This document shows positions 504 to 36,530 of a stretch of DNA of 64,000 nt, in pieces. Under the pieces are notes generated by a model, which saw nothing but the letters and a program-made list of their open reading frames with translations, was not told the origin of the DNA and searched no databases. Source of the DNA: Candidatus Omnitrophota bacterium. Its GTDB lineage: Bacteria > Omnitrophota > Gorgyraeia > VGKH01. The stretch lies in NCBI GenBank assembly GCA_043819095.1, contig JBDRFF010000020.1, positions 35,890-99,889 on the forward strand. The letters are read 5' to 3'. The position numbers and the translations under genes are program-made. The number at the start of each line of letters is the position of its first letter. Position 1 is the first letter of the stretch.

Positions 504-1793
504 AGTCCTTTCTTCCTCTCTTACTAAATCTCTGATATCAGCGAAACTGAAGTTTTCATTTAATAATCTATCTTTAATATTGGTTATATCTATTTTTTCT
601 TTGATTAATTTTAAGAATACTCCGGACTGATTGATATTCCCAACCAAAACTGCTCCAACTAATCGATTCCCGGCTATAACTAATTTTTTATAAATCTCTA
701 AACCGGGAAAAGATTTTGATAAGATTTCTTGGTTTTCGCCTTCTTTATAAATCCCCATTGAGACAACCGGCAAATCAAAAAACTCAACTGAATTTAATCC
801 TAAAGAACCTTCGTATTTTATATTTTCACCAGCGATATTGCTTCCGGCGATTTTGCCTTGTTCAACTGCGTGCGGCCAAAGAGCATTGACTATTGGCTTA
901 TTTAATGTGATATCAAAAGTCTCGCAGACATCGCCTGCAGCGTAGATATTTGGAATATTTGTCTTCATGTTTTCATCAACACAAATTCCATCACTGATTT
1001 TTATCTCGGTCTCAGAAATTATATCAGTGTTGGGTTGAACACCTTTTGCTACAACCACAATCTGACAAGCAATAACTTTATTATTATCTAAACGCACTGC
1101 TTTAAGATCACCATTTCCGACTATTTCTGTGATGCTTCTTCCTGTCAGTATCTCAATTCCATTGTCTGATAATCTCTTCTGCACAAGTTGGGCTGCTTGC
1201 TTATCAACCACTTGAGATAAAACATAAGGCGATCTTATAATAACTTTTACATCCTTGCCTCTTTTTCTCAGACCATATGCAGCTTTTAATCCGATAAGTC
1301 CGCCTCCGGAAACACAGGCAGTATCTGCCATCGTCACTAATTGTAAAATGTCTTTAGTATCTTTTATAGTTCTAAAACCGAATACTCCTTTTTTCTTGAT
1401 TCCTTTTAATTCGGGAAATTTCGGGCTTGCGCCATTAGCCAAAAGAAGCGCATCATAATCAAGTTGTAATTTAGACGATTTTGATTTCTTATCTTCTTCT
1501 TTGTTCTCTGAAACATCTTCAGCTACAACACGATTTTTCTTAGGATCGACCCTCACTACCTTTGTGCCTAATTTAAGCTCTGCGTTCTGCTCTTTGAAGA
1601 ATTCATTGCTGCGATAAACTAACTTTTCTTCCGTCACTTTTCCGGCCAGAAAATCAGAGATAACGCATCGACAATAAGAAGGATAATCCTCATCGGATAA
1701 AACGATAATCTTTGATTCTTTATCCTTTTTTCTTATTGCCTCAACAGCGGCAACGCCTGCTGCTGAATCTCCGATAATGATTACTTGTTTCAT
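495..1793 (-). CDS. FAD/NAD(P)-binding pyridine nucleotide-disulfide family oxidoreductase (CooF-associated FNOR-like)
   Basis: N-terminal GxGxxG dinucleotide fold (IIGDSAAGVAAVEAI), a second Rossmann motif (VSGGGLIGLKAAYGL) and a GD motif (AAGDVCE) typical of NADH oxidase/CoA-disulfide reductase-like enzymes. Sits between cooF and acsB. Confidence 0.7.
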   Translation of the reverse strand: MKQVIIIGDSAAGVAAVEAIRKKDKESKIIVLSDEDYPSYCRCVISDFLAGKVTEEKLVYRSNEFFKEQNAELKLGTKVVRVDPKKNRVVAEDVSENKEEDKKSKSSKLQLDYDALLLANGASPKFPELKGIKKKGVFGFRTIKDTKDILQLVTMADTACVSGGGLIGLKAAYGLRKRGKDVKVIIRSPYVLSQVVDKQAAQLVQKRLSDNGIEILTGRSITEIVGNGDLKAVRLDNNKVIACQIVVVAKGVQPNTDIISETEIKISDGICVDENMKTNIPNIYAAGDVCETFDITLNKPIVNALWPHAVEQGKIAGSNIAGENIKYEGSLGLNSVEFFDLPVVSMGIYKEGENQEILSKSFPGLEIYKKLVIAGNRLVGAVLVGNINQSGVFLKLIKEKIDITNIKDRLLNENFSFADIRDLVREEERTYV

Positions 1794-1795
1794 AA

Positions 1796-1992
1796 TTATT
1801 GCTTTCTTTAATGAGCGCTTGACTTATGGAACAAAAGTGACATAAGTCAAATGCGCGAATTAACCCCCACTGTTTCGTTTTGGTTCGCTTTGCTTCACCA
1901 AAAGCGAAACAAAACGGTGGGGGCAAATTCAGCCAGACGACTTAGCTTCCTCCGACGATACGTCGGAATCGTTAAGTCGTGGCTTCATTTCC
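1796..1992. repeat. Modular nested-palindrome intergenic repeat element, copy A (H1 variant 2; H2 = cccccactgtttcg...cgaaacaaaacggtggggg; H3 degenerate)
   Basis: Shares left end ttaatgagcgc, H1 hairpin gcgcttgacttatgg/cataagtcaaatgcgc, linker gaattaacccc, linker ggggcaaattcagcca, H3 cgacttagcttcctccgacg-ata-cgtcggaatcgttaagtcg and right end gtggcttcattt with copies B-E. The cooF stop (1929) lies inside it. Confidence 0.7.
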
Positions 1993-2426
1993 TCTTCTTC
2001 TACCCAAAGAACTGCTTTAACCGGGCAAGCCTTTACACACTGCGGCTCGCCGATATCAGTACACAAATCACATCTAACAGGAATTTTTACTTTTTTATTC
2101 GGCCTGATAGCACCATAAGGACAAACCATTACGCACATCCAGCAACCTACGCATTTATCTTCATCGTATAAAATCTGACCGGTTTTCTCATCTTTTGATA
2201 TTGCCGCAGCCATACAAGCAGCTACACATTTGGGATCCTTACAATGCCTGCAGCTCATAGGATAATTTTTATCTTTAGAAAAGGTAATCTTTATGCGTGG
2301 TAAAGATTTATCCTTCTCCTTGATCATCTTTTCCAATTCTTTGGAGACCGAATGCGAAATAGCACAGGCAAGTTCACAGGATTTACAACCTAAACATTTC
2401 TCGACGTCAAAATAAATCTTTTTCAT
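1929..2426 (-). CDS. cooF: CooF-type 4Fe-4S ferredoxin (CO dehydrogenase iron-sulfur electron-transfer subunit)
   Basis: Multiple CxxCxxCxxxCP cluster motifs (CLGCKSCELAC, CVGCWMCVMVCPYGA, CDLC...CVKACP). Lies immediately downstream of cooS. Confidence 0.8.
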   Translation of the reverse strand: MKKIYFDVEKCLGCKSCELACAISHSVSKELEKMIKEKDKSLPRIKITFSKDKNYPMSCRHCKDPKCVAACMAAAISKDEKTGQILYDEDKCVGCWMCVMVCPYGAIRPNKKVKIPVRCDLCTDIGEPQCVKACPVKAVLWVEEEEMKPRLNDSDVSSEEAKSSG

Positions 2427-2445
2427 ATTATTTTGGTAATTTTTT

Positions 2446-2541
2446 AACGCAGATTATCGCAAATCTAACGCAGATACACACAGATTTTATCCTTATGGAC
2501 AATCTGCGACCATCTGCGTGCAATCCGCGAATATCTGCGTT
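2446..2541. promoter_or_regulatory. ~95-bp imperfect palindrome made of eight 8-mer (AACGCAGAT / ATCTGCGT-like) repeats at ~11-bp spacing, between cooS stop and cooF start
   Basis: Left arm: aacgcagat (2446), tcgcaaatc (2457), aacgcagat (2467), cacagattt (2479). Right arm in inverse orientation: aatctgcga (2501), catctgcgt (2511), aatccgcga (2522), atctgcgtt (2533). Symmetry centre near 2493. Confidence 0.5.
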
Positions 2542-2557
2542 CAAAAACTATTCCCAT

Positions 2558-4489
2558 TTATTTTTTTCCTGTTTTAACTGCCTCCTGATACATCATTGGC
2601 TGCAGTTTAAGCGCCTCACGCTTTTTATTTATATGATCAATCATCATTTTTGCTGCTTTTAAAGGATCTGCCTCAAATGCAAATTTTCCTCCGCAAATAG
2701 ACTCCATATCCTCAGTCAAAAATTTAGTTACATTTTGACTCCCTAAGACAGGCATTGCCCCGCCTAAAACTGTAAACACGCCTGAAGAAACAAAATAAAA
2801 TCCGATGCTTATTGCCTTTTCCGACATCCACTCTGGCGCTGCTCCGGCTGCGGGAAGATCTGAAATATCTTCACCAAGACCCCCTTCTTTCAAAACTTCA
2901 GTTGCTGCGATTAGAATTCGACTATTATCTACGCAAGAGCCCATATGTAATACAGGCGGAATACCTACTGCTTCGCAAATTTCTTTCAAACCTTTGCCTG
3001 CTGCTTCAAATGCTGCTTCTGGCTGTAACAATCCAGCCTTACCGCAAGCGATAGCAGAGCATCCTGTCGATAAAACAATCACATCATTTTTAAGTAATTC
3101 TTTGACCAAAGTCAGATGGCCAAAATCGTGAGTAATTTTAGGATTATTGCAACCCACAACTCCTGCGATACCACGAATCCTTCCGTTAATGATAGCTTCA
3201 TTTAAAGGCTTAAAGGTGTTAAGATATTTCCCACCTAAAATGCGCGAAACTATTTCAGTTGAAATCCCTGCAATTAAATCTTTCTTTTCTTTGGGAATAA
3301 AAACTCTGTTTTTATCTCTTTTCTTATAATTCTCGATTGCCTTTTTCACAATCGATTTCATTATATTTATGGCGTCGTGTTCATCAAAGTGGATAAATGT
3401 CACGCCGGGAAACTTTGCCTTTTCCGACGTGGTAATAATCTCAGTATGAAAACATTTGGCAACATCAATCAAACCCGGCATAATACACTGGATATCGACC
3501 ATCATCATTTCTACCGCGCCTGTGGCGATGGCTAATTCCTGTTGCAGGAAATTTCCTGCTAAAGGCACTTCATGACGCATCAGGACTTCATTTGCCGTAC
3601 AGCACATTCCGGCTAAATTTATTCCAGCTGCGCCTGCTTCTTTTGCCAATTTTATCATCTCCGGGTCTTTGACCACCTGGGCTGCTGCCTCAGGAAGAAG
3701 CGCTTCGTGGCCGTGAACAATAATATTAACCTGATCCTCTTTCAATACACCCAGATTAACCGTCCCTCGTATTGGTTCGGGAGTACGCAAAAGGATATCC
3801 TGGGCTTCGGTTGCAATCATCGAACCGCCCCAGCCATCCCCAAGACTTGTCCTCATTCCGTGCAAAATTATACTCTTATATTCATTATCCACTCCAATAT
3901 GAACCCTATGCATGGCTTCAACAATTTCTCTATCAACACCGCGAGGAATAATGCCTGCCTTTTTCCAAACCGCGATTCTCTTCTTAGGAGCGCGGACGAT
4001 AAATTTAAGCGGGCCTTCCTGCGCGCCAAAATCCTCTAAAAACTTATCGCCTAAATCCGCAGCAATATCTTCTTTGGAACGACCTTCAATTTTGATACCA
4101 TACATCTTGGCCATTTCCTTTAATTTATCTTCGTCTTGAATTTTATAATCGTGGATTTTGCCTTTGCCAACTAAATGAAGCGCGTGCGCAACGCCTCTTC
4201 CGTGGTCTGAATGCGCAGCAGCTCCACAGGCAATATGGCGAAGCAAATTTCGCGCGACAATTGTGTCTGCATCGGCGCCACAAACTCCACACTGTGTGCC
4301 TTCGCCAAATGGATCAATCCTACAAGGCCCAAGATAACAATTCGTACAACAAATCCCTAACTGCCCAAAACCGCACTGCGGTTGCATTTCTTCATGTCTG
4401 TCCCAAATTGTCTTAAAAGATTCGCCTTGAATCTTTTTTAAAACTTCTTGGGTTGCTGGATCAACCGATCGCTTAGTTACATCACTCAT
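2558..4489 (-). CDS. cooS: Anaerobic Ni-dependent carbon monoxide dehydrogenase catalytic subunit (CooS/AcsA)
   Basis: 643 aa. N-terminal CGFGQLGICCTNCYLGPCRI cluster B/D motif and overall CooS-like length. Strong SD (AGGAGG) 8 nt upstream on the minus strand. Confidence 0.9.
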   Translation of the reverse strand: MSDVTKRSVDPATQEVLKKIQGESFKTIWDRHEEMQPQCGFGQLGICCTNCYLGPCRIDPFGEGTQCGVCGADADTIVARNLLRHIACGAAAHSDHGRGVAHALHLVGKGKIHDYKIQDEDKLKEMAKMYGIKIEGRSKEDIAADLGDKFLEDFGAQEGPLKFIVRAPKKRIAVWKKAGIIPRGVDREIVEAMHRVHIGVDNEYKSIILHGMRTSLGDGWGGSMIATEAQDILLRTPEPIRGTVNLGVLKEDQVNIIVHGHEALLPEAAAQVVKDPEMIKLAKEAGAAGINLAGMCCTANEVLMRHEVPLAGNFLQQELAIATGAVEMMMVDIQCIMPGLIDVAKCFHTEIITTSEKAKFPGVTFIHFDEHDAINIMKSIVKKAIENYKKRDKNRVFIPKEKKDLIAGISTEIVSRILGGKYLNTFKPLNEAIINGRIRGIAGVVGCNNPKITHDFGHLTLVKELLKNDVIVLSTGCSAIACGKAGLLQPEAAFEAAGKGLKEICEAVGIPPVLHMGSCVDNSRILIAATEVLKEGGLGEDISDLPAAGAAPEWMSEKAISIGFYFVSSGVFTVLGGAMPVLGSQNVTKFLTEDMESICGGKFAFEADPLKAAKMMIDHINKKREALKLQPMMYQEAVKTGKK

Positions 4490-5538: not shown

Positions 5539-6383
5539 TTGGCTTGAATCTTTGTTGCTTCAACTAAATTACGCATTAACATTGTGACGGTTAATGGCCC
5601 TACGCCGCCTGGAACCGGCGTGATATATGATGCACGTTTGGAAGCTTCGTCAAATTCTACGTCTCCCACGATTTTTCCTTCAACGCGATTTATTCCTACA
5701 TCGATTACAATTGCGCCATCCATTATCCATTCGCCCTTAATTAATCCGGCTTTTCCTACGGCTACAACTAAAATCTCGGCTTTGTTTACATGTTCGATTA
5801 ATTTTCCAGCTTCTGAAGTTCCAATATGACAGACTGTTGTGGTTGCAAATTTCTCTAATAATAAAAGGCTTAAAGGTTTCCCTACGATTTCGCTATGCCC
5901 TACGATAACTACTTCTTTTCCGTAAAGATTAACTCCAGTCGCCTCAATCAAAGCCATTGCTGCCGCTGCAGTACAAGGCGCAATTCTTGCTTTACCCATT
6001 AAAACTTTTCCCAGATTTTGCGGATGCATTCCTTCGATATCTTTATCGGGTGAAATAAAACTACTGATTGCCTTATAATCTATCTGCTTTGGAAGCGGCA
6101 TCTGAACGATGATTCCGTTGACATTAACATCATTATTTAATTTCTGAATAAAATCAATTAAGCCTGGCTGATTCGTATCAGCCGGCAATCTTTCTAAACT
6201 ATATTCAATTCCTAAATTGTCTGCTGTCTTTTTCTGTGATTTGCAATAGGCTTCTGCGCCGACATTTTCACCGATGATGATGCTTGCTAAAACCGGCTTT
6301 TTGCCCAAGCTTGAAATTTCTTTCTTTAATGCCTCTTTGATTCCAGAAGCAATAATTTTTCCTTCAAGTAATTTGGCGGCCAT
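5535..6383 (-). CDS. folD: Bifunctional 5,10-methylene-THF dehydrogenase / 5,10-methenyl-THF cyclohydrolase
   Basis: 282 aa; MAAKLLEGKIIASGIKEALK N-terminus; NAD(P) site VVIVGHSEIVGKPL; PVPGGVGPLT C-terminal motif. Confidence 0.9.
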   Translation of the reverse strand: MAAKLLEGKIIASGIKEALKKEISSLGKKPVLASIIIGENVGAEAYCKSQKKTADNLGIEYSLERLPADTNQPGLIDFIQKLNNDVNVNGIIVQMPLPKQIDYKAISSFISPDKDIEGMHPQNLGKVLMGKARIAPCTAAAAMALIEATGVNLYGKEVVIVGHSEIVGKPLSLLLLEKFATTTVCHIGTSEAGKLIEHVNKAEILVVAVGKAGLIKGEWIMDGAIVIDVGINRVEGKIVGDVEFDEASKRASYITPVPGGVGPLTVTMLMRNLVEATKIQAK

Positions 6384-6932
6384 TTATATCCTCCAAGATT
6401 TAAATTGCTGCTTAATTCTTGCGACGAATTTCTTATCTTTTATATACGGAAGATTGATTTTCACGTTTACGATTGCAGATTTGATTGCAGCGCGAAGTAA
6501 GCTGTTTGCGACATGAACATCGCTGATTAAATACTTATTTCCTTTTTTTGCTAACACCGGACAAAGATTCAATGCTTGAAAACTTAATTCGGTAATCTTT
6601 ACGGGAACAATAGTTGCTTCTTTTAAGGATTTTTGATGTAAGGCGAAAGAGATCTTTTTGTTTCGAGCAACCTTATTATAAGTTATAACATCTAAATCAA
6701 CTAATTCAAGCAACTTTTTTCTTATTTTTCCCGATTCTTTTAATGACTTTTTGATATCTTTTTGGAATTTCTTATATTTTGGTTTGCCTATGGTAAAATT
6801 TGCTACCATAGAAAGCAATGCCGCGGCTGTTGCGCCAACAAGCGCTGCAGCTGAACCGCCTCCGGGAGCCGGCTTTCTTGCCGCTAAATCATCAAGATAT
6901 TCCCTTATACTTTTATTAGCATATTTTCTCAT
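6384..6932 (-). CDS. fchA: Cyclodeaminase/cyclohydrolase family protein (methenyl-THF cyclohydrolase FchA-like)
   Basis: 182 aa; N-terminal LDDLAARKPAPGGGSAAALVGATAAALLSMVANFT is the FtcD/FchA cyclodeaminase signature. Sits between fhs and folD. Confidence 0.75.
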   Translation of the reverse strand: MRKYANKSIREYLDDLAARKPAPGGGSAAALVGATAAALLSMVANFTIGKPKYKKFQKDIKKSLKESGKIRKKLLELVDLDVITYNKVARNKKISFALHQKSLKEATIVPVKITELSFQALNLCPVLAKKGNKYLISDVHVANSLLRAAIKSAIVNVKINLPYIKDKKFVARIKQQFKSWRI

Positions 6933-7255
6933 TTTATAAATTCCTCCACGTCTATGCCTCTCTTCTGGACATCATCAACCATTTTCTCCATTCGCTTTCG
7001 TTCTTCTTTGTCTTTTAACAATTTAAGAAATCTTTTTTCCATCTCCGGATTAACCTTCTCTTGTTGTTTGAACATCGACAAAAATAATACAGATAGAAAT
7101 ACTGCGAACAAAACAAGAACTGCGTCGCGAAAAAATTTACTTACTCTTATTCTTAGATGATGAGGATGTGGTTCGGCTTCTTTTTGAGGATGACTTTCGT
7201 CTTTCTTAAGTAAACTCTCCTCTTCTCTCCTAAAATAATCCTCTAATTTGTCCAT
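6929..7255 (-). CDS. Hypothetical small membrane protein (one TM helix, highly charged flanks)
   Basis: 108 aa ORF overlapping fhs (26 nt) and fchA (4 nt). Central hydrophobic segment AVLVLFAVFLSVLFLSMF flanked by K/E-rich regions. No recognisable family. Confidence 0.35.
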   Translation of the reverse strand: MDKLEDYFRREEESLLKKDESHPQKEAEPHPHHLRIRVSKFFRDAVLVLFAVFLSVLFLSMFKQQEKVNPEMEKRFLKLLKDKEERKRMEKMVDDVQKRGIDVEEFIK

Positions 7256-8921
7256 TGTCGTCGATATCTATTTTTTCCCCAGCCGGATGAGTTGGAAGCC
7301 CCGGCATCGTACGCATCTCTCCGCAAAGCACGTAAAGAAAACCAGCTCCCACAGAAGCCTTAATATCCCTTACGGGAAGAATAAAATCTTCAGGCCTGCC
7401 CTTTAGTTTAGGGTCATGTGAAAGTGAAAGATGAGTCTTAGCCATACAGATGGGGAACTTATTATATTTCAATTTTGTATAAAGCCTTACCTTTTCTTCT
7501 GCGCGCACTGAATAGAAAACGCTTTTTGCCCCATATATTTTCTTTGCGATTGTCTCTATCTTATCTTTAATTTTCATAGAATCAGGATAAAGATATTTAA
7601 AATGGCTCTTCTTATTAGCTGCTTTTGTAACGGCTCTGGCTAAATCTGTGCCGCCTTTTGAACCCTTTGCCCAGACTTCGCTTAGCGCAACATCATCGGC
7701 ACCGGCTTGCAAAGCTATTCTTTTTACCAGGTCTATCTCTTTTTTAGTATCTGTTGTAAATTTATTTACAGCCACAACGCAAGGAATCCCGAATTGTTTT
7801 ATATTCTCAATTTGCTTTTCTAAATTTGAGCTGCCTTCTCTTAATGCCTCAAGATTTTCCGATATAAGACCTTTACTCAAAGGCTTGCCGGCAACGACAT
7901 TAAATCTTCCGCTGTGCATCTTTAATGCCCGAATAGTACAAACCAGAACCGCTGCATCGGGTTTAATACCGCTATTTCTACACTTTATATTAAAGAATTT
8001 CTCCGCCCCGCAATCTGCGCCAAAGCCGCTTTCGGTGACAACAAAATCTGCTAATTTTACAGCTATCCTGTCTGCTAAAATAGAACTATTGCCGTGGGCG
8101 ATATTAGCAAACGGCCCTGCATGTACGAATACGGGGGTATTTTCTAACGTCTGAATAAGCGTTGGCTTTATCGCGTCCTTTAATAAAACAGCCATAGCTC
8201 CGGCGACTTTCAAGTCTTCTGCGGTAACTAACTTACCATTTTTTGTCATTGCTACAACTATACGCCCGATCCTTTTCCTTAAATCAGATAAATTCTCAGT
8301 AAGCGCCAATATAGCCATAATTTCACTGGCTACAGATATATCAAATCCTCCCTGACGAGGAATGCCGTCCTGTTTAGAGCCCAGACCAACAGTAATGTAT
8401 CTTAATGACCTGTCGCTCACATCAACTACCCTCTTCCAGAAAATCTTATGCATATCAAAATTAAATTTATGGCGATAGATTGCATTATCCAAGAAAGCTG
8501 CGCAAAGATTATGCGCCAGGCTGACCGCATGAACATCTCCTGTGAAATGGAGATTAAAATCTTCCATTGGGATTACTTGGGAATAACCGCCTCCGGCAGC
8601 TCCGCCCTTTATGCCGAATACCGGACCTAAAGAAGGCTGCCTAATACAGCTGATAGTTTTTTTGCCGATGCGATTAAGAGCCATTGACAACCCTATAGTG
8701 GTGACAGTTTTACCTTCACCAAGAGGCGTAGGTGTAATTGCGGTCACATCTATATATTTTGCATTCTTTTTATTCTTATTCTTTTTGATTAGATCCAAAG
8801 ACACCTTTGCCTTATAGTTGCCGTAAAACTCAAGATCACTATCCTTTATGCCAATCTTCTTGGCAATTTGCTTGATGGGCTTAATCTTTGCGTTTTGAGC
8901 AATTTCTAAATCTGAAAGCAT
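7230..8921 (-). CDS. fhs: Formate--tetrahydrofolate ligase
   Basis: 563 aa; canonical FTHFS N-terminus MLSDLEIAQNAKIKPI and P-loop region PTPLGEGKTVTTIGL. SD GAAGGAGG directly upstream. Confidence 0.9.
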   Translation of the reverse strand: MLSDLEIAQNAKIKPIKQIAKKIGIKDSDLEFYGNYKAKVSLDLIKKNKNKKNAKYIDVTAITPTPLGEGKTVTTIGLSMALNRIGKKTISCIRQPSLGPVFGIKGGAAGGGYSQVIPMEDFNLHFTGDVHAVSLAHNLCAAFLDNAIYRHKFNFDMHKIFWKRVVDVSDRSLRYITVGLGSKQDGIPRQGGFDISVASEIMAILALTENLSDLRKRIGRIVVAMTKNGKLVTAEDLKVAGAMAVLLKDAIKPTLIQTLENTPVFVHAGPFANIAHGNSSILADRIAVKLADFVVTESGFGADCGAEKFFNIKCRNSGIKPDAAVLVCTIRALKMHSGRFNVVAGKPLSKGLISENLEALREGSSNLEKQIENIKQFGIPCVVAVNKFTTDTKKEIDLVKRIALQAGADDVALSEVWAKGSKGGTDLARAVTKAANKKSHFKYLYPDSMKIKDKIETIAKKIYGAKSVFYSVRAEEKVRLYTKLKYNKFPICMAKTHLSLSHDPKLKGRPEDFILPVRDIKASVGAGFLYVLCGEMRTMPGLPTHPAGEKIDIDDNGQIRGLF

Positions 8922-9208
8922 TTGACCTCCTTCAATGACGACATAATTTACGGAGTTTTCAAACGACGTAAATTATTCGTCGAAATTGAACCCCCCACCA
9001 CTTTTAGTAATCAGGCGTTCTTTTATATAAAAACGTTTATCGTCTTTTCAAACCCACCATCTTTAATTCCACAGTTGTTTCTAAAAGTGGTGGGGGGTCA
9101 AATTTCCCTCGACGTTGCTCGGGACTCCTTCGAGGGATCCTGAGCGAAGTCGAAGGGCAGACAAACAATTTATGTCATTGCATTCCATAACTTGTGTCTT
9201 CATTTGAT
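8916..9208. repeat. Modular nested-palindrome intergenic repeat element, copy C (long H2 variant plus extra hairpin module, degenerate 3' end)
   Basis: Left end cctccttcaatgacg (supplies fhs SD). H1 gacgacataatttacgg/cgtaaattattcgtc. H2 17-bp perfect stem ccccccaccacttttag (8991-9007) / ctaaaagtggtgggggg (9081-9097). Extra hairpin ccctcgacg...cgtcgaggg (9106-9136). Ends ...gtgtcttcatttg next to the yraN stop. Confidence 0.7.
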
Positions 9209-9592
9209 CTAATATAGATAATGATTATCTAATAAAAACGCGTTTTTTATAATATCGACCTTATTTTCTCCGGATGAATTATGCATTACTGAAACAACAT
9301 CAAACCTTGCTGACTTCTTTAGTAATCTATTATTTTTTAAATATGATAAAGCCAATTGAGACAGCTTATGTTGTTTGCTCTTGGTGATTGACTCTTGAGG
9401 TGAGCCTTTTTCCTGCGTGGTTCTGGTTTTTACCTCCACAAAACAAATGCAATTCTTATCTTTTGCAACTATATCGATTTCTCCAAGGTTAGTTCTAAAA
9501 TTCTTTTCTAAAATCTTATAGCCATTGCTTTTTAAGAAATTGATTGCCGAATCTTCACCGGCAAGACCTAAATCTATTTTCTGTCTAGACAT
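9209..9592 (-). CDS. yraN: YraN family (UPF0102) endonuclease
   Basis: 127 aa; GEDSAINFLKSNGYKILEKNFR...GEIDIVAKD...FVEVKTR motif typical of YraN. Confidence 0.8.
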   Translation of the reverse strand: MSRQKIDLGLAGEDSAINFLKSNGYKILEKNFRTNLGEIDIVAKDKNCICFVEVKTRTTQEKGSPQESITKSKQHKLSQLALSYLKNNRLLKKSARFDVVSVMHNSSGENKVDIIKNAFLLDNHYLY

Positions 9593-10218
9593 TTTACGGG
9601 ACTAAAGCTTTTTCGATGGAATACCGACGGACCATGTCTCTTTAACGCTTTTAGATGTCTTTTTGTGCCGTAACCTTTATGTTTGGAGAAACCATACTGC
9701 GGATGAATCCTATCAAGTAAAAGCATCATTCTATCGCGGGTGAACTTCGCCACGATTGAGGCGCAGGCAATGGATAAACTTTTCGAATCCCCTTTAATTA
9801 TATTTTTAGTATAACAAGGCACATCTAGATCAAGTATATTACCGTCTACTAAAACACAAACTTGTTTTTTTAATCGATTTCTCTTGAAGCCTTTTTTCTT
9901 CTCTAAATGCAAAATCAAATCCAAGATTGCATTACGCATCGCAAGGCGCGTTGCCTCTAAGATATTTATTTGATCGATATGGTCTTCGCTGACAACGCCT
10001 AAACCGAAGATCGATTTCGTGATTATTTCGCGAAATGCCTTCTCCCGTTGCATAGCGGTGAGTTTTTTTGAATCATCGATACGATTTCTAAAACGCTTAT
10101 CTACTAATAAAACTGCCGAAGCTACCACAGGACCTGCCAGTGGACCACGACCAGCTTCGTCAACCCCGATGATGAATTTAAAACCTTTTTTCTTGGCTTT
10201 ATTTTCGTGATAAAGCAA
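9574..10218 (-). CDS. rnhB: Ribonuclease HII
   Basis: 214 aa; IIGVDEAGRGPLAGPVVASAVLL catalytic motif. Confidence 0.9.
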   Translation of the reverse strand: MLYHENKAKKKGFKFIIGVDEAGRGPLAGPVVASAVLLVDKRFRNRIDDSKKLTAMQREKAFREIITKSIFGLGVVSEDHIDQINILEATRLAMRNAILDLILHLEKKKGFKRNRLKKQVCVLVDGNILDLDVPCYTKNIIKGDSKSLSIACASIVAKFTRDRMMLLLDRIHPQYGFSKHKGYGTKRHLKALKRHGPSVFHRKSFSPVKCLDRK

Positions 10219-33361: not shown

Positions 33362-35140
33362 CTATTTTATTATTTTTTCTAATTCCTCAAACGTGGTTTT
33401 CTCTGTTGCCCCAAAAATTTCTTTGTTACCTAAAAGAAACAAAGGACCATAATAAATCTTTAGTTCCTCGGGCAATTTTATATTGTCTTTTAAAAGATCA
33501 TCAGCTTCCTGGCTTTTAGCACATTTTCTAATCGAATCTATATCCAATCCTAATTTAATAGCGCAATCATCCCACCAAGTGCTTTCGATATTATCTAACC
33601 TACAAAATAAGTAATCCCATAGATTATCAGTATATTTTTGCATTATACAAAGAACTCTCTTATTTTCTTCTATTTCGGCTATACCGCCCGGAGCCCTAAA
33701 TTCAGCCAAGGCCTCATCATAGACAGCAAGAAAATGAATATTGAAATTAAATTTAGCTCCTGGTTCATCCAGTAATTTTTTGGTTATCTCTAAAACATTT
33801 TTTGATCCCTTATTCCTTAAACTTATAAATAAATCCAATCTATCTTTCTCGGCTTTTCTTTCTAGGAAATAAGATACACCGATTACAAACGGATTCACCA
33901 TATAATAATTAGCATCTTTTTTTTCGATGATTTTTGTGTCTAACAAATTTTTAAAATTATTGTGCCTCGTTACTTCTTTACCAAGCAAAAATACAGGAAG
34001 CATGTTAATTTCGAATTTTTTGATTAAATCTTTTGCCTTCTTATCATCGCTATCTAGATGTATCGCAGAAAGTCCTGATATTCGGTCATTAAGTTGTTCT
34101 AGCGCTAAATCGATATTGCAGGTCTTACAATCTTTGGGGCTTATTACAGTTAAAGGCAACTTTAAATCTTCGCCGTAAACGCAAGTTGCATCTTTCTCTC
34201 CGGGCGATTCACAAATACCTCTTTGTTTACCTTTATAACATTCTTTATCCTGAAAACAAAGCGGCAAGAAATCTTTAATCTCAGTGGCATCAGGGATATT
34301 TTTATCCATGGGAAAATTCTTAGGTGCAATCCCTTTTATTTTACCGTCTTCCACGTCAAGCTCCAGGACTCCTAAGGTTCTTGTCCATGAATAAGGCTTT
34401 AAATATATTGCTGAGCCAATCTTATCCCCGGTTTTATACTTACTACTCATTACGCTTGAAATAATAATATCGATTCCATCTATCTTCTCTAATAATTGCT
34501 CATCCATTCCTAGGCCTAACTGACTTAATATTATCGTGATATCAACCTTTTTACCTTTCAGCTTTTTAATGTTATCCTTAACGACCTTTATTGTTTGCGC
34601 AATATCTTGTTTAATGCCTAAACCAGAATCTATCGGCGAGACTGCGACAATCCCAACTTTTGTCTTACCGAATTCTTTGATAACAAAAGGCGATAATCCG
34701 GGTAATTCTAGATTGCAAGACAAAAAATCAATATCGATTTTCTTGATAACATCCGATAAAAACTCTTTCCCGAAATTAAACTCTCCCTTGCCAACACCAA
34801 CGGCATCATAACCCATAATCTCCATTGCTTTAAAATATATCTCTGTTCGCTTCTTATCTAATCCTGGCTCTTGGCTATCGGGATCTTGTTCTCCTGAAGC
34901 AAAATAATCTCCGCTATCAAGTAATAAGAGATTTTGATACTGCTTACGCAGCTCTTTTATCTTTGTTGCCCGACGAGCTATTCCACCGTTTGGATTCTCG
35001 GGACATCTACAAGGATATAAGCTGGCGTGCGAATCACCTGAATAAACAATCGCTATCTTTTCTGCATACAAAAATTCATTAACAAATAAAACCGCAAAAC
35101 AACTCAATAAAAATATTAAAATTAATCTCTTAAGCATCAT
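33362..35140 (-). CDS. Secreted multidomain protein: degenerate 5'-nucleotidase/metallophosphoesterase-like N-domain plus DsbA-like thioredoxin-fold domain with CKTC motif
   Basis: 592 aa; signal peptide (LILIFLLSCFAVLFVNEFLYA). NPNGGIARRATKIKELR...LLLDSGDYF resembles the UshA/5'-nucleotidase N-terminal fold. TVISPKDCKTCN...MLPVFLLGKEV resembles a thioredoxin-fold CxxC segment. A C-terminal thioredoxin-like region has no Cys pair. Confidence 0.45.
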   Translation of the reverse strand: MMLKRLILIFLLSCFAVLFVNEFLYAEKIAIVYSGDSHASLYPCRCPENPNGGIARRATKIKELRKQYQNLLLLDSGDYFASGEQDPDSQEPGLDKKRTEIYFKAMEIMGYDAVGVGKGEFNFGKEFLSDVIKKIDIDFLSCNLELPGLSPFVIKEFGKTKVGIVAVSPIDSGLGIKQDIAQTIKVVKDNIKKLKGKKVDITIILSQLGLGMDEQLLEKIDGIDIIISSVMSSKYKTGDKIGSAIYLKPYSWTRTLGVLELDVEDGKIKGIAPKNFPMDKNIPDATEIKDFLPLCFQDKECYKGKQRGICESPGEKDATCVYGEDLKLPLTVISPKDCKTCNIDLALEQLNDRISGLSAIHLDSDDKKAKDLIKKFEINMLPVFLLGKEVTRHNNFKNLLDTKIIEKKDANYYMVNPFVIGVSYFLERKAEKDRLDLFISLRNKGSKNVLEITKKLLDEPGAKFNFNIHFLAVYDEALAEFRAPGGIAEIEENKRVLCIMQKYTDNLWDYLFCRLDNIESTWWDDCAIKLGLDIDSIRKCAKSQEADDLLKDNIKLPEELKIYYGPLFLLGNKEIFGATEKTTFEELEKIIK

Positions 35141-35152
35141 CTAAAACCTCCC

Positions 35153-36310
35153 CTAATGTTTAAGTATAATCAATAAAAACAGACCAAGTCCAAAAAATAC
35201 AAAAGCGGTTATAAGTTTTACCTTTGCAAGGTGCCTGCTGGCTAACTTTGCAAAAGTCTGGGAAGTCGTTCCCAAAAGCGCGAACAAAAATATCGCTAAT
35301 AACGGCACAATAAACATAAGATTATAAAGAATTAGATAAAACCAGGCCTTTGTTTTCAGTTCAGGAATACCTAAGACGTAAACGATCGTAGGCAGATACA
35401 ATTGTCCGGTGCAGACCGATTCTAAAAGTGAAACAATGAACCCACAGCTTAAAGCCGTAAGCATTAACCTAAGCAGAGTTCGACGCTTGTGACCTTCTTC
35501 TCTATCATCTGTCTTTTCCCTTATAGTTGATTGTATTCGCTTCTTTATAAAACCGGGAAGTTTTAATTTTACTCTCTCAGGATCCTTTGTCTTTTTAAAA
35601 ATCCACCAATCATATAAACTAATTGCCCCCAAAGTCAAAGCTAAAATAGCTGTAGTTAAATAAATCAAATATGAAAAGATAACAAAAAATGCCAGCCTTC
35701 TAAAAATCTCAAATAGGCCAAGACCGATCCATAGATAGGTAAAAAATACCGCCGTAATAAAGAAGCTTCCTAAGATTATAGTTTGTTTGCGGCTGTAACC
35801 TGCGAAGGTCAAAAAAGATATAAAAAATATAAGAACCGTAAACGCACAAGGGTTTATCCCGTCGATAAGACCGGCTGTAATTATGGTCAACCAACTAAAA
35901 GACCCGAAACGGCCTATCAACACTTCTTTTTGCGGACGTATATCGGCTAATAGCTTAACTGATAATATTGGCTGCTTAGGATCATTTGTATGAATATAGA
36001 TATATTTTATAGTTTTAGATGTAAAACCCGTTGTATTAAATAAAAATTTTATATCTAATCTATCGCCTGGTGCGACTTTAGCCTGTTTGCTTGGCTCAAG
36101 AATCTTTACACATCCGCAGTTTACCTTTAGTAAATCTACTAATAAGGCTTTATCGCCAGTGTTCTGAATTGCAAAGCTATGTTCATAGACCATTCCTTCT
36201 GCCATCTGCCCCAGATCAAATTCTTTATTGGCAATAGAAATCTCTGGAGACGCAAAAGAACTTACGGCGACAGAAAAAAACAATGTAATTAAAAGCGCGA
36301 TTCTTTTCAT
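35153..36310 (-). CDS. Fusion of periplasmic DUF1573 domain and CcdA/DsbD-type transmembrane thiol-disulfide transporter domain
   Basis: 385 aa; signal peptide; DUF1573 signature (IQNTGDKALLVDLLKVNCGCVKI). Then a 6-TM region with the two conserved DsbD/CcdA cysteines in GINPCAF and LESVCTGQ contexts. Confidence 0.6.
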   Translation of the reverse strand: MKRIALLITLFFSVAVSSFASPEISIANKEFDLGQMAEGMVYEHSFAIQNTGDKALLVDLLKVNCGCVKILEPSKQAKVAPGDRLDIKFLFNTTGFTSKTIKYIYIHTNDPKQPILSVKLLADIRPQKEVLIGRFGSFSWLTIITAGLIDGINPCAFTVLIFFISFLTFAGYSRKQTIILGSFFITAVFFTYLWIGLGLFEIFRRLAFFVIFSYLIYLTTAILALTLGAISLYDWWIFKKTKDPERVKLKLPGFIKKRIQSTIREKTDDREEGHKRRTLLRLMLTALSCGFIVSLLESVCTGQLYLPTIVYVLGIPELKTKAWFYLILYNLMFIVPLLAIFLFALLGTTSQTFAKLASRHLAKVKLITAFVFFGLGLFLLIILKH

Positions 36311-36314
36311 TGTT

Positions 36315-36530
36315 CTAACGACACCTGGCTTTTACTTCTTGTCTTAAATCCTCAAGCTTTTGAAGGATTTGATTTTGATTCTCTGATATCTTATTTAATT
36401 TGTCAATAATCCTAGCCTCAGCACTTACTTTTAATTCTGTATCTTGAGCTGTAGTATTCCTAAAATAAAAAGTGACCGAGAATGCTAAGAATACAAACAA
36501 TAGGACCAAAAGCAAAAAGAATCTTTTCAT
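36315..36530 (-). CDS. Small hypothetical membrane-anchored coiled-coil protein
   Basis: 71 aa; N-terminal TM (FFLLLVLLFVFLAFSVTF) then coiled-coil-like tail. Weak evidence for being a real gene. Confidence 0.3.
   Translation of the reverse strand: MKRFFLLLVLLFVFLAFSVTFYFRNTTAQDTELKVSAEARIIDKLNKISENQNQILQKLEDLRQEVKARCR

Follow-up and report, generated by a model that had tools for sequence, protein, structure and literature searches.

An earlier note, made from the sequence alone, had singled out three adjacent open reading frames (ORFs) in a stretch of Candidatus Omnitrophota DNA (contig JBDRFF010000020.1, positions 35,890 to 99,889; 64,000 nucleotides, hereafter the window) as a candidate periplasmic thiol-disulfide redox module. 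All three ORFs were found, and we refer to them as gene A, gene B and the 71-amino-acid (71-aa) ORF:

36315..36530, minus strand: 71-aa ORF, with a signal-anchor helix, a coiled coil and a C-terminal ARCR; clade-restricted accessory gene
35153..36310, minus strand: gene B, 385 aa, with a signal peptide, a DUF1573 domain (CxC) and a two-cysteine module of six transmembrane (TM) helices
33362..35140, minus strand: gene A, 592 aa, a secreted four-part protein

The genes run head to tail in the order 71-aa ORF, B, A, with 4 nt and 12 nt between them. Upstream of the group, serA is 18 nt away, and a homocitrate-synthase-like gene follows 10 nt downstream; the three genes seem to belong to a long, tightly packed transcription unit. 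Around them, promoter and terminator patterns were no commoner than in shuffled sequence. B and A are each 100% identical to a protein from a Candidatus Omnitrophota metagenome-assembled genome at NCBI (P0001 and P0121, respectively). Since full-length homologues number in the hundreds for B and in the dozens for A, both are real genes and not chance ORFs.

Within B, a secreted N-terminal domain is joined to a membrane-embedded C-terminal half, with the following features:

35966..36241, minus strand: DUF1573 / PapD-like immunoglobulin-like (Ig) domain, aa 24-115; the invariant CxC (C65, C67) lies at nt 36110-36118
35156..35905, minus strand: 6-TM module, aa 136-385, delimited by hydropathy, the AlphaFold2 (AF2) model and invariant residues
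35846-35848, minus strand: C155, in GINPCAF, at the helix break of TM1
35411-35413, minus strand: C300, in SVCTGQ, at the helix break of TM4

The DUF1573 domain proposed for B scored 56.6 bits against the Pfam (PF07610) gathering cut-off of 26.1. Its NCGC cysteine pair (C65/C67) was invariant in 31 homologues down to 41% identity, as were both signature cysteines predicted in the membrane half, C155 and C300; C289 was variable in the same alignment. The best NCBIfam match of the N-terminal domain was the OS_HP2 (seleno)protein family (NF041425, 4.4e-16), at 59 bits against a curated cut-off of 100, so that by the NCBI criterion B is a homologue and not a member. In the AF2 model of B (mean predicted local distance difference test score [pLDDT], 77), helices span residues 140-151/154-168, 174-204, 209-241, 276-301/306-313, 316-345 and 350-384, with a K/R-rich loop between TM3 and TM4 (aa 235-277). 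TM1 and TM4 break at residues 152-153 and 301-305, that is, at C155 and C300. B therefore has the 6-TM core with one conserved cysteine each in TM1 and TM4 at helix breaks by which DsbD and CcdA are recognized. The signal peptide places DUF1573 outside the cell membrane and six TM helices follow, so the C terminus of B is predicted to lie outside too. This topology fits the C-terminal thioredoxin or DUF1573 domains seen in a natural fusion of B (P0108, described below) and in class-3 loci.

A had been described as a secreted protein of three parts: a degenerate nucleotidase-like domain, a DsbA-like segment with a CKTC motif and a thioredoxin-like C terminus. Its secretion and its degenerate N-terminal domain stand, but the AF2 model (mean pLDDT, 90.9) has four parts, with the last two domains in reversed order. 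The CKTC motif is real but sits in a small thioredoxin-like domain, not in the DsbA-like segment. Two further features, a near-invariant YPCxCP motif and an invariant four-cysteine linker, had escaped notice. The parts of A are:

34271..35062, minus strand: UshA/5'-nucleotidase-like N-terminal domain, aa 27-290, with a degenerate dimetal site
35003-35011, minus strand: near-invariant YPCxCP of that domain, with C44 and C46
34169..34270, minus strand: linker, aa 291-324, with four cysteines (C295, C301, C310, C320) invariant in 40 sequences
33857..34168, minus strand: small thioredoxin-like domain, aa 325-428, beta-alpha-beta-alpha-beta-beta in the AF2 model, with PDB profile matches
34118-34129, minus strand: CKTC, with C338 and C341
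33365..33856, minus strand: DsbA-like C-terminal domain, aa 429-592, with no CxxC at the canonical site

The N-terminal domain of A has the 5'-nucleotidase / calcineurin-like metallophosphoesterase fold. Its best NCBIfam match was the UshA-like (seleno)protein family (NF041198, PCGU; 3.5e-37), at 128 bits against a cut-off of 275 and covering only model positions 7-270 of 519, with the PCxC present. Scores against SoxB (TIGR04486; 73 bits, cut-off 550) and Pfam Metallophos (14.3 bits, cut-off 21.5) were also below threshold. We take the dimetal ligands and catalytic His-Asp of UshA to be D41, H43, D84, N116, H117, D120, H217 and H252. Of these metal and catalytic residues, only H43 is kept in the A family: N116 is replaced by D, S or P, H117 by D or E, D84 by N, S or G and D120 by N, and H217 and H252 vary. 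The loss of metal and catalytic residues ruled out an active phosphoesterase. The suggestion that A is a phosphoesterase-like processor of substrates was accordingly abandoned; the phosphoesterase site is dead, and the CxC is probably the active site instead.

The linker that follows forms short hairpins in the AF2 model. Its cysteines are spaced C-x5-C-x8-C-x9-C among conserved glycines, a pattern that could form a disulfide-stapled knot or a metal-binding knuckle, and it is kept even at L093, a locus devoid of the thioredoxin and DsbA-like domains. In the small thioredoxin-like domain, the CxxC lies at the start of helix 1, and the invariant L381-P382 is a candidate cis-Pro loop before strand 3, as in the thioredoxin fold. 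Single-sequence Pfam matches for this domain were marginal, and a profile of aa 325-428 searched against the PDB returned almost only thioredoxins (best E = 8.6e-4), whose CxxC and LP align with those of A. The CxxC occurs in ∼90% of A homologues. The C-terminal domain has the DsbA fold (PF01323), a thioredoxin fold with a helical insert. No active-site CxxC follows its strand 1, where the consensus is DLFISLFDK without cysteine; four conserved cysteines lie in the helical insert (C498, C513, C526, C540).

The membrane half of B had been assigned to the CcdA/DsbD type. Its six TM helices and a remote profile match support this assignment indirectly, but direct support from hidden Markov models was lacking, and several results weigh against kinship with DsbD. 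The membrane half gave no Pfam match at E < 10, DsbD_TM (PF02683) and DsbD_2 (PF13386) included, no NCBIfam match at E ≤ 1 and nothing among PDB sequences by phmmer and profile search. PDB fold searches returned matches to the Ig domain only, with no comparison of the membrane fold to CcdA. A 257-sequence profile of the module reached ∼2 bits against E. coli DsbD in a local hmmsearch, which is not significant, and comparison of TM1-3 with TM4-6 by hhalign revealed no 3+3 internal repeat at the sequence level (probability 0.4%, E = 0.16). The TM4 motif is VCTGQ and not the PC motif usual in CcdA/DsbD. By any curated threshold, the 6-TM module is not a DsbD/CcdA member.

With the module alone as query, an exhaustive search returned 3,178 cluster representatives at E ≤ 1e-3, in which it is almost always the C-terminal part of a longer protein. 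Across 55 distant relatives, NPC and C..G.Y.P are invariant. N-terminal partners in these relatives were DUF1573 (21), Thioredoxin_2 (16), Glutaredoxin (13), Glrx-like (10), Thioredoxin (7), Thioredoxin_4 (6) and DSBA (2), and a CxxC usually lies ∼125 aa upstream of the NPC helix. The only named membrane families that relatives touched, all below threshold, were DsbD_TM (3.4e-5; 2 of 55), DsbD_2 (1.1e-3; one member, full length), SfLAP (1e-7, full length) and the NCBIfam model ArsG. We take DsbD_TM, DsbD_2 and SfLAP to belong to one Pfam clan; some family members are annotated as CcdA by JGI. Canonical CcdA/DsbD was not detected by jackhmmer from DsbD beta among the 836 ORFs of the loci examined.

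DsbD of E. coli (DipZ) consists of an Ig-like alpha domain with a cysteine pair, a TM beta domain with Cys163 and Cys285 and a thioredoxin-like gamma domain with CxxC. In hhalign runs with DsbD beta as a single-sequence template, a profile of 55 family members aligned over ∼200 columns with a probability of 68% (E = 4.8e-5), and one of 257 members over a similar length with a probability of 45% (E = 2.2e-4). In both runs, NPC fell on the TM1 cysteine of DsbD and CTGQ on the TM4 cysteine. In eleven controls, E was ≥ 0.13; five of these were unrelated transporters from E. coli, and six were DsbD sequences that had been reversed or shuffled. These alignments suggest that the 6-TM module is a remote homologue of DsbD/CcdA that existing models do not cover and that it may be CcdA-like in function.

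The family is found in bacteria and archaea, yet it has no Pfam or NCBIfam model of its own. Archaeal members from Nanohaloarchaea (L087, 4061-5194) and Methanoregula (L088, 5737-6654) have CTGG in place of CTGQ, an N-terminal thioredoxin-like CxxC and best matches to SfLAP (1e-7 and 6e-5, respectively; full length, below cut-off). When a plasmid collection was searched by tblastn for the membrane module, a single match emerged, a Pseudanabaena "glutaredoxin family protein." This 468-aa protein with the membrane module is encoded on Pseudanabaena galeata plasmid pPg_03 (NZ_CP112877.1; L008, 4326-5732); a DsrE-family gene is its neighbor, with cysK and katG close by, a sulfur and oxidative-stress setting.

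The DsbA-like end of A also allows an oxidative system, in which the module would re-oxidize A in the manner of DsbB/VKOR so that disulfides form in exported proteins; the four-cysteine linker and helical insert of A probably need disulfides themselves. We consider this highly unlikely, given that the active-site position of the DsbA-like domain lacks a CxxC and that the module, with single mid-membrane cysteines as in DsbD/CcdA, aligns to DsbD beta and lacks the periplasmic-loop cysteine pairs and quinone-site features of DsbB/VKOR.

A further alternative is a thiol-based relay or transporter for soft metals or metalloids (Hg, Cu, As, Se) after the manner of MerP/MerT, with the CxC and CxxC motifs binding the ion and the module moving it. 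For many modules, the nearest NCBIfam model is the efflux permease ArsG (E = 1e-5 to 5e-3), the CxxC domain of A weakly resembles ArsF (E = 0.05) and, among Pfam models, archaeal members match the transporter-like SfLAP best. As ligands for soft metals, CxC and CxxC are well suited, the scaffold of A was once a metal site, the DsbA-like matches include the copper-sensitivity suppressor ScsC and the superfamily of the two-cysteine module presumably consists mostly of transporters. Nevertheless, ArsG scored ∼25 bits against a cut-off of 200 and ArsF 14 against 60, and we rejected placing the system with ArsEFG because the similarity is too weak. The fusion partners of the module are thiol oxidoreductases (thioredoxin, glutaredoxin, ResA/TlpA, AhpC-TSA), not metallochaperone folds; in the hhalign alignments, each of its two cysteines falls on a redox cysteine of DsbD; and the genes belong to a conserved block of housekeeping genes rather than to a resistance island. 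On balance, a metal relay is unlikely, though it retains a modest chance.

The proposal that A and B work together had been tied to their co-occurrence across genomes, which was largely borne out in species-representative genomes among 27 loci with a true B orthologue. Full-length A lies directly downstream of B at 19 of these loci. At three others there is a short A, with the thioredoxin-like and DsbA-like domains only, as in Gygaella; at one, B is fused in frame to an A-type CxxC domain; and at one, the UshA-like part stands alone. Some part of A is thus adjacent or fused to B at 24 loci, and nothing of A was found at the remaining three. Split A also occurs among Omnitrophota loci. Queried alone, the N-terminal domain of A gave at least 16 matches, P0349, P0350, L092 and L093 among them.

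Three observations stand on the other side. Synteny in Omnitrophota extends over the whole lptC-lptB-tig-clpP-serC-serA-B-A-HCS-purA block and inflates these counts, so that adjacency alone is weak evidence. B occurs without A at L019 and L034. At L092 and L093, that slot is taken by UshA-like genes, and B is absent.

Natural fusions join the parts more directly. P0108 unites B and the C-terminal half of A in one chain (42% identity, 5e-61). In most relatives, a gamma-like CxxC domain is fused beside the membrane module; in P0108 and L029, it is joined to B itself. An UshA-like domain with CxC, a CxxC domain and the membrane module share one chain in P0193 and at 17 genome loci (L038, L040-L049, L052, L053, L058, L059, L085 and L086); at L045 (4615-6777) this fused paralogue is a continuous ORF of 720 aa. 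P0234, found on contigs up to 101 kb, combines UshA-like, DUF1573, glutaredoxin and membrane modules. At L094 (GCA_964468595.1), a ResA/TlpA-like domain (CEPC; ResA-like, 8.9e-24) is fused to an UshA-like domain (SCECP) at 168-1568, and directly downstream (1608-3117) lies a DUF1573 (CKC)-glutaredoxin (CQYC)-membrane module gene interrupted by masked bases.

These arrangements bear on the idea that A and B are functionally unrelated and neighbors through regional synteny alone. The conserved lptC-to-purA block, and the occurrence of B without A and of A-type genes without B in the same slot, would agree with that idea. Yet the pair also stands outside the block, at L006, where B and a 588-aa A homologue (E = 1e-123) share a wholly different neighborhood. 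In addition, parts of A and B are fused in at least four arrangements in more than 17 species-representative genomes, and an assembly artifact is unlikely for fusions in 17 independent genomes. Chance neighborhood is scarcely tenable and has been largely refuted by the fusions. Based on the unrelated context, the species-genome counts and the fusions, the link between A and B is strong, and the pairing is modular rather than obligatory. The earlier description of a dedicated electron-delivery system was right that the genes are functionally linked and thiol-based, but "dedicated" is too strong for modules that are shuffled in this way.

Two of the fusions have further neighbors. The fused paralogue of ∼700 aa with the UshA-like motif NCHCP also occurs at L009 (211-2295), and at both L009 and L045 an M48 peptidase gene and a LOG-family gene come after it. 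At L010, a gene for a 201-aa AhpC-TSA/Redoxin protein (6354-6959) lies 42 nt upstream of the P0234 fusion (7001-9622); its product may be a periplasmic client of the peroxiredoxin or TlpA type, as for ScsB.

One metagenomic protein, P0350 (435 aa; JGI contig of 2,274 bp), has an UshA_like_PCGU domain (1.1e-59) fused to multiheme c-type cytochrome regions of the Pfam Cytochrome_C554 type, with weak decaheme NCBIfam matches. It hints that some UshA-like CxC domains are coupled to heme electron carriers and not to thiol relays. Both P0350 and the ResA-like fusion at L094 would suit an ordinary CcdA plus ResA/CcmG-type pair for cytochrome c maturation, in which the thioredoxin domain of A would reduce apocytochrome CxxCH; thioredoxins of the ResA/CcmG type are the classical CcdA clients. 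We regard such a pair as very unlikely, because no cytochrome c maturation genes lie beside A and B at any locus examined and the thioredoxin domain of A matches no ResA, CcmG or TlpA model. Nor does this alternative account for the conserved CxC of DUF1573, the CxC of the UshA-like domain or the DsbA-like domain.

Selenocysteine (Sec, U)/cysteine pairs at homologous positions mark catalytic redox residues. DUF1573/OS_HP2 selenoproteins carry UGC/UxC and UshA-like selenoproteins carry CxU (PMC9312934, PMC13188914, PMC2398784), and the UshA-like family is among the abundant marine selenoprotein families (GOS selenoproteome study). Judged by family names, motif spacing and position, the CxC motifs of A and B appear to be in register with these Sec motifs. 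Because the homologous selenoprotein families carry Sec there, the CxC sites of both proteins are putative redox sites. The literature searched gave neither a function nor a membrane partner for the NF041198 and NF041425 families beyond table entries, and it assigned no function to DUF1573. In line with the claim that this domain combination is uncharacterized, no characterized protein with such an architecture was found.

Taken together, these data make it reasonably probable that A and B form a split, divergent DsbD-type transmembrane thiol-disulfide relay. The path is proposed, and the direction of flow taken, by homology to DsbD/CcdA (Cho et al. 2012, PMC3322552); P0108, with the alpha-beta-gamma order in one chain, supports the analogy. 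The cytoplasmic thioredoxin system would reduce C155 (TM1) and C300 (TM4) of B, which would carry reducing equivalents across the membrane. On the periplasmic side, electrons would pass from C155/C300 to the thioredoxin-like CKTC domain of A, the putative counterpart of DsbD gamma. From CKTC, they may go to C65/C67 in the DUF1573 domain of B, the putative counterpart of DsbD alpha, to C44/C46 in A, or to both. The nucleotidase-like domain of A would then be an old scaffold whose former active-site loop now bears a redox (or thiol/selenol-ligand) CxC, and the CxC sites would act on the final substrate. Against this scheme, two A homologues (P0149 and P0170) have lost the CxxC, which means that the CKTC step is not universal. 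Because these homologues lack the motif, a direct route from the membrane to CxC must also be possible.

The 71-aa ORF stands apart from A and B. The small membrane/coiled-coil ORF that had been noted before the pair proved real and conserved, but only in the closest clade. By tblastn, homologues were found in the same position (L011, 8e-13; L012, 5e-8; L014, 6e-3; L013, 7e-2) and were absent beyond the closest clade, L011-L015. Their coordinates are:

L011, 5783-6001: 71-aa ORF homologue
L012, 5761-6000: 71-aa ORF homologue
L013, 5755-5991: 71-aa ORF homologue
L014, 5762-5998: 71-aa ORF homologue
L015, 5763-5978: 71-aa ORF homologue

A strong ribosome-binding site precedes the ORF, and its C-terminal cysteine motif (ARCR, ARCTR or IRCTK) is present in five of six genomes. 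The 71-aa ORF is a genuine accessory gene outside the conserved core. As pure speculation, a small predicted periplasmic protein with a C-terminal cysteine beside a SoxB-like domain might recall the carrier arm of SoxY.

Over the window as a whole (1-64000), each 2-kb bin shows a negative GC skew, and no family reached threshold in an Rfam scan of the full 64 kb. The minus strand carries every gene examined from 26.9 to 42.6 kb.

A broader proposal, which we put forward tentatively and hold somewhat less probable than not, is that the 6-TM NPC/CTGQ module defines a fourth, as yet unmodelled class of the DsbD superfamily, with two orphan selenoprotein families, DUF1573 (OS_HP2) and the UshA-like CxC/CxU domain, as its periplasmic end-acceptors. 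On that proposal, the UshA-like domain would be a phosphoesterase scaffold turned thiol/selenol oxidoreductase. By analogy to SoxY/SoxB, its substrate could be a sulfur or selenium compound, perhaps carried on a small C-terminal-cysteine protein such as the 71-aa ORF product.

If the relay is real, transmembrane supply of reductant would be the first functional context for DUF1573 and for the UshA-like CxC/CxU family. It would also mean that a large DsbD-like membrane family lies beyond current domain libraries, whose members are annotated only as "DUF1573 domain-containing," "glutaredoxin family" or "hypothetical" because those libraries miss it. A would exemplify a dimetal phosphoesterase scaffold that lost its catalytic residues and gained a redox motif. 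That the genes belong to a core housekeeping block points to a basic cell-envelope role in Omnitrophota, a little-studied and mostly uncultured phylum. These points should interest both envelope redox biology and selenoproteome research.

The DsbD/CcdA type of relay is already known; the architecture of A and B has no characterized counterpart. Compared with SoxB and the 5'-nucleotidases UshA and CD73, A lacks the conserved dimetal ligands, the catalytic His/Asp and the C-terminal substrate-binding domain, and it scores far under the family cut-offs. The N-terminal domains of A and B are closest to the NF041198 (UshA-like) and NF041425 (OS_HP2) families, respectively, their best NCBIfam matches, and the CxC motifs resemble CxU and UGC/UxC. 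Unlike those selenoproteins, A and B carry Cys for Sec, and in A only the first half of the 519-position NF041198 model is present, the rest being replaced by thioredoxin-like and DsbA-like domains. ScsB/ScsC is the third class of the DsbD superfamily (Cho et al. 2012, PMC3322552). ScsB, with 8 TM helices, has an alpha domain of its own, and ScsC keeps its CxxC; at the sequence level nothing matched here, but ScsB sets a precedent for swapped alpha domains. B resembles the minimal 6-TM protein CcdA (Rhodobacter, Bacillus, Thermus) in its six helices, in its pair of membrane cysteines and in having a thioredoxin-like periplasmic partner as a separate protein. In contrast to CcdA, B matches none of the CcdA, DsbD_TM and DsbD_2 models above threshold, its motifs are GxNPCAF and CTGQxYLP as against the PCxxP type, and it has a long K/R-rich TM3-TM4 loop with an amphipathic helix and a fused DUF1573 domain. 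DsbD itself differs in having 8 TM helices to the 6 of B, whose core matches no DsbD_TM model. The Ig-like domain of B is a DUF1573/PapD-like fold with CxC that matched DsbD alpha in no search, and the gamma-like domain resides on a separate protein, A, together with the UshA-like CxC domain and a DsbA-like domain without CxxC. In common with DsbD, the pair has an Ig-like domain with a cysteine pair, a membrane core with cysteines in TM1 and TM4 and a thioredoxin-like CxxC domain, and P0108 and L029 even keep the same module order in one chain.

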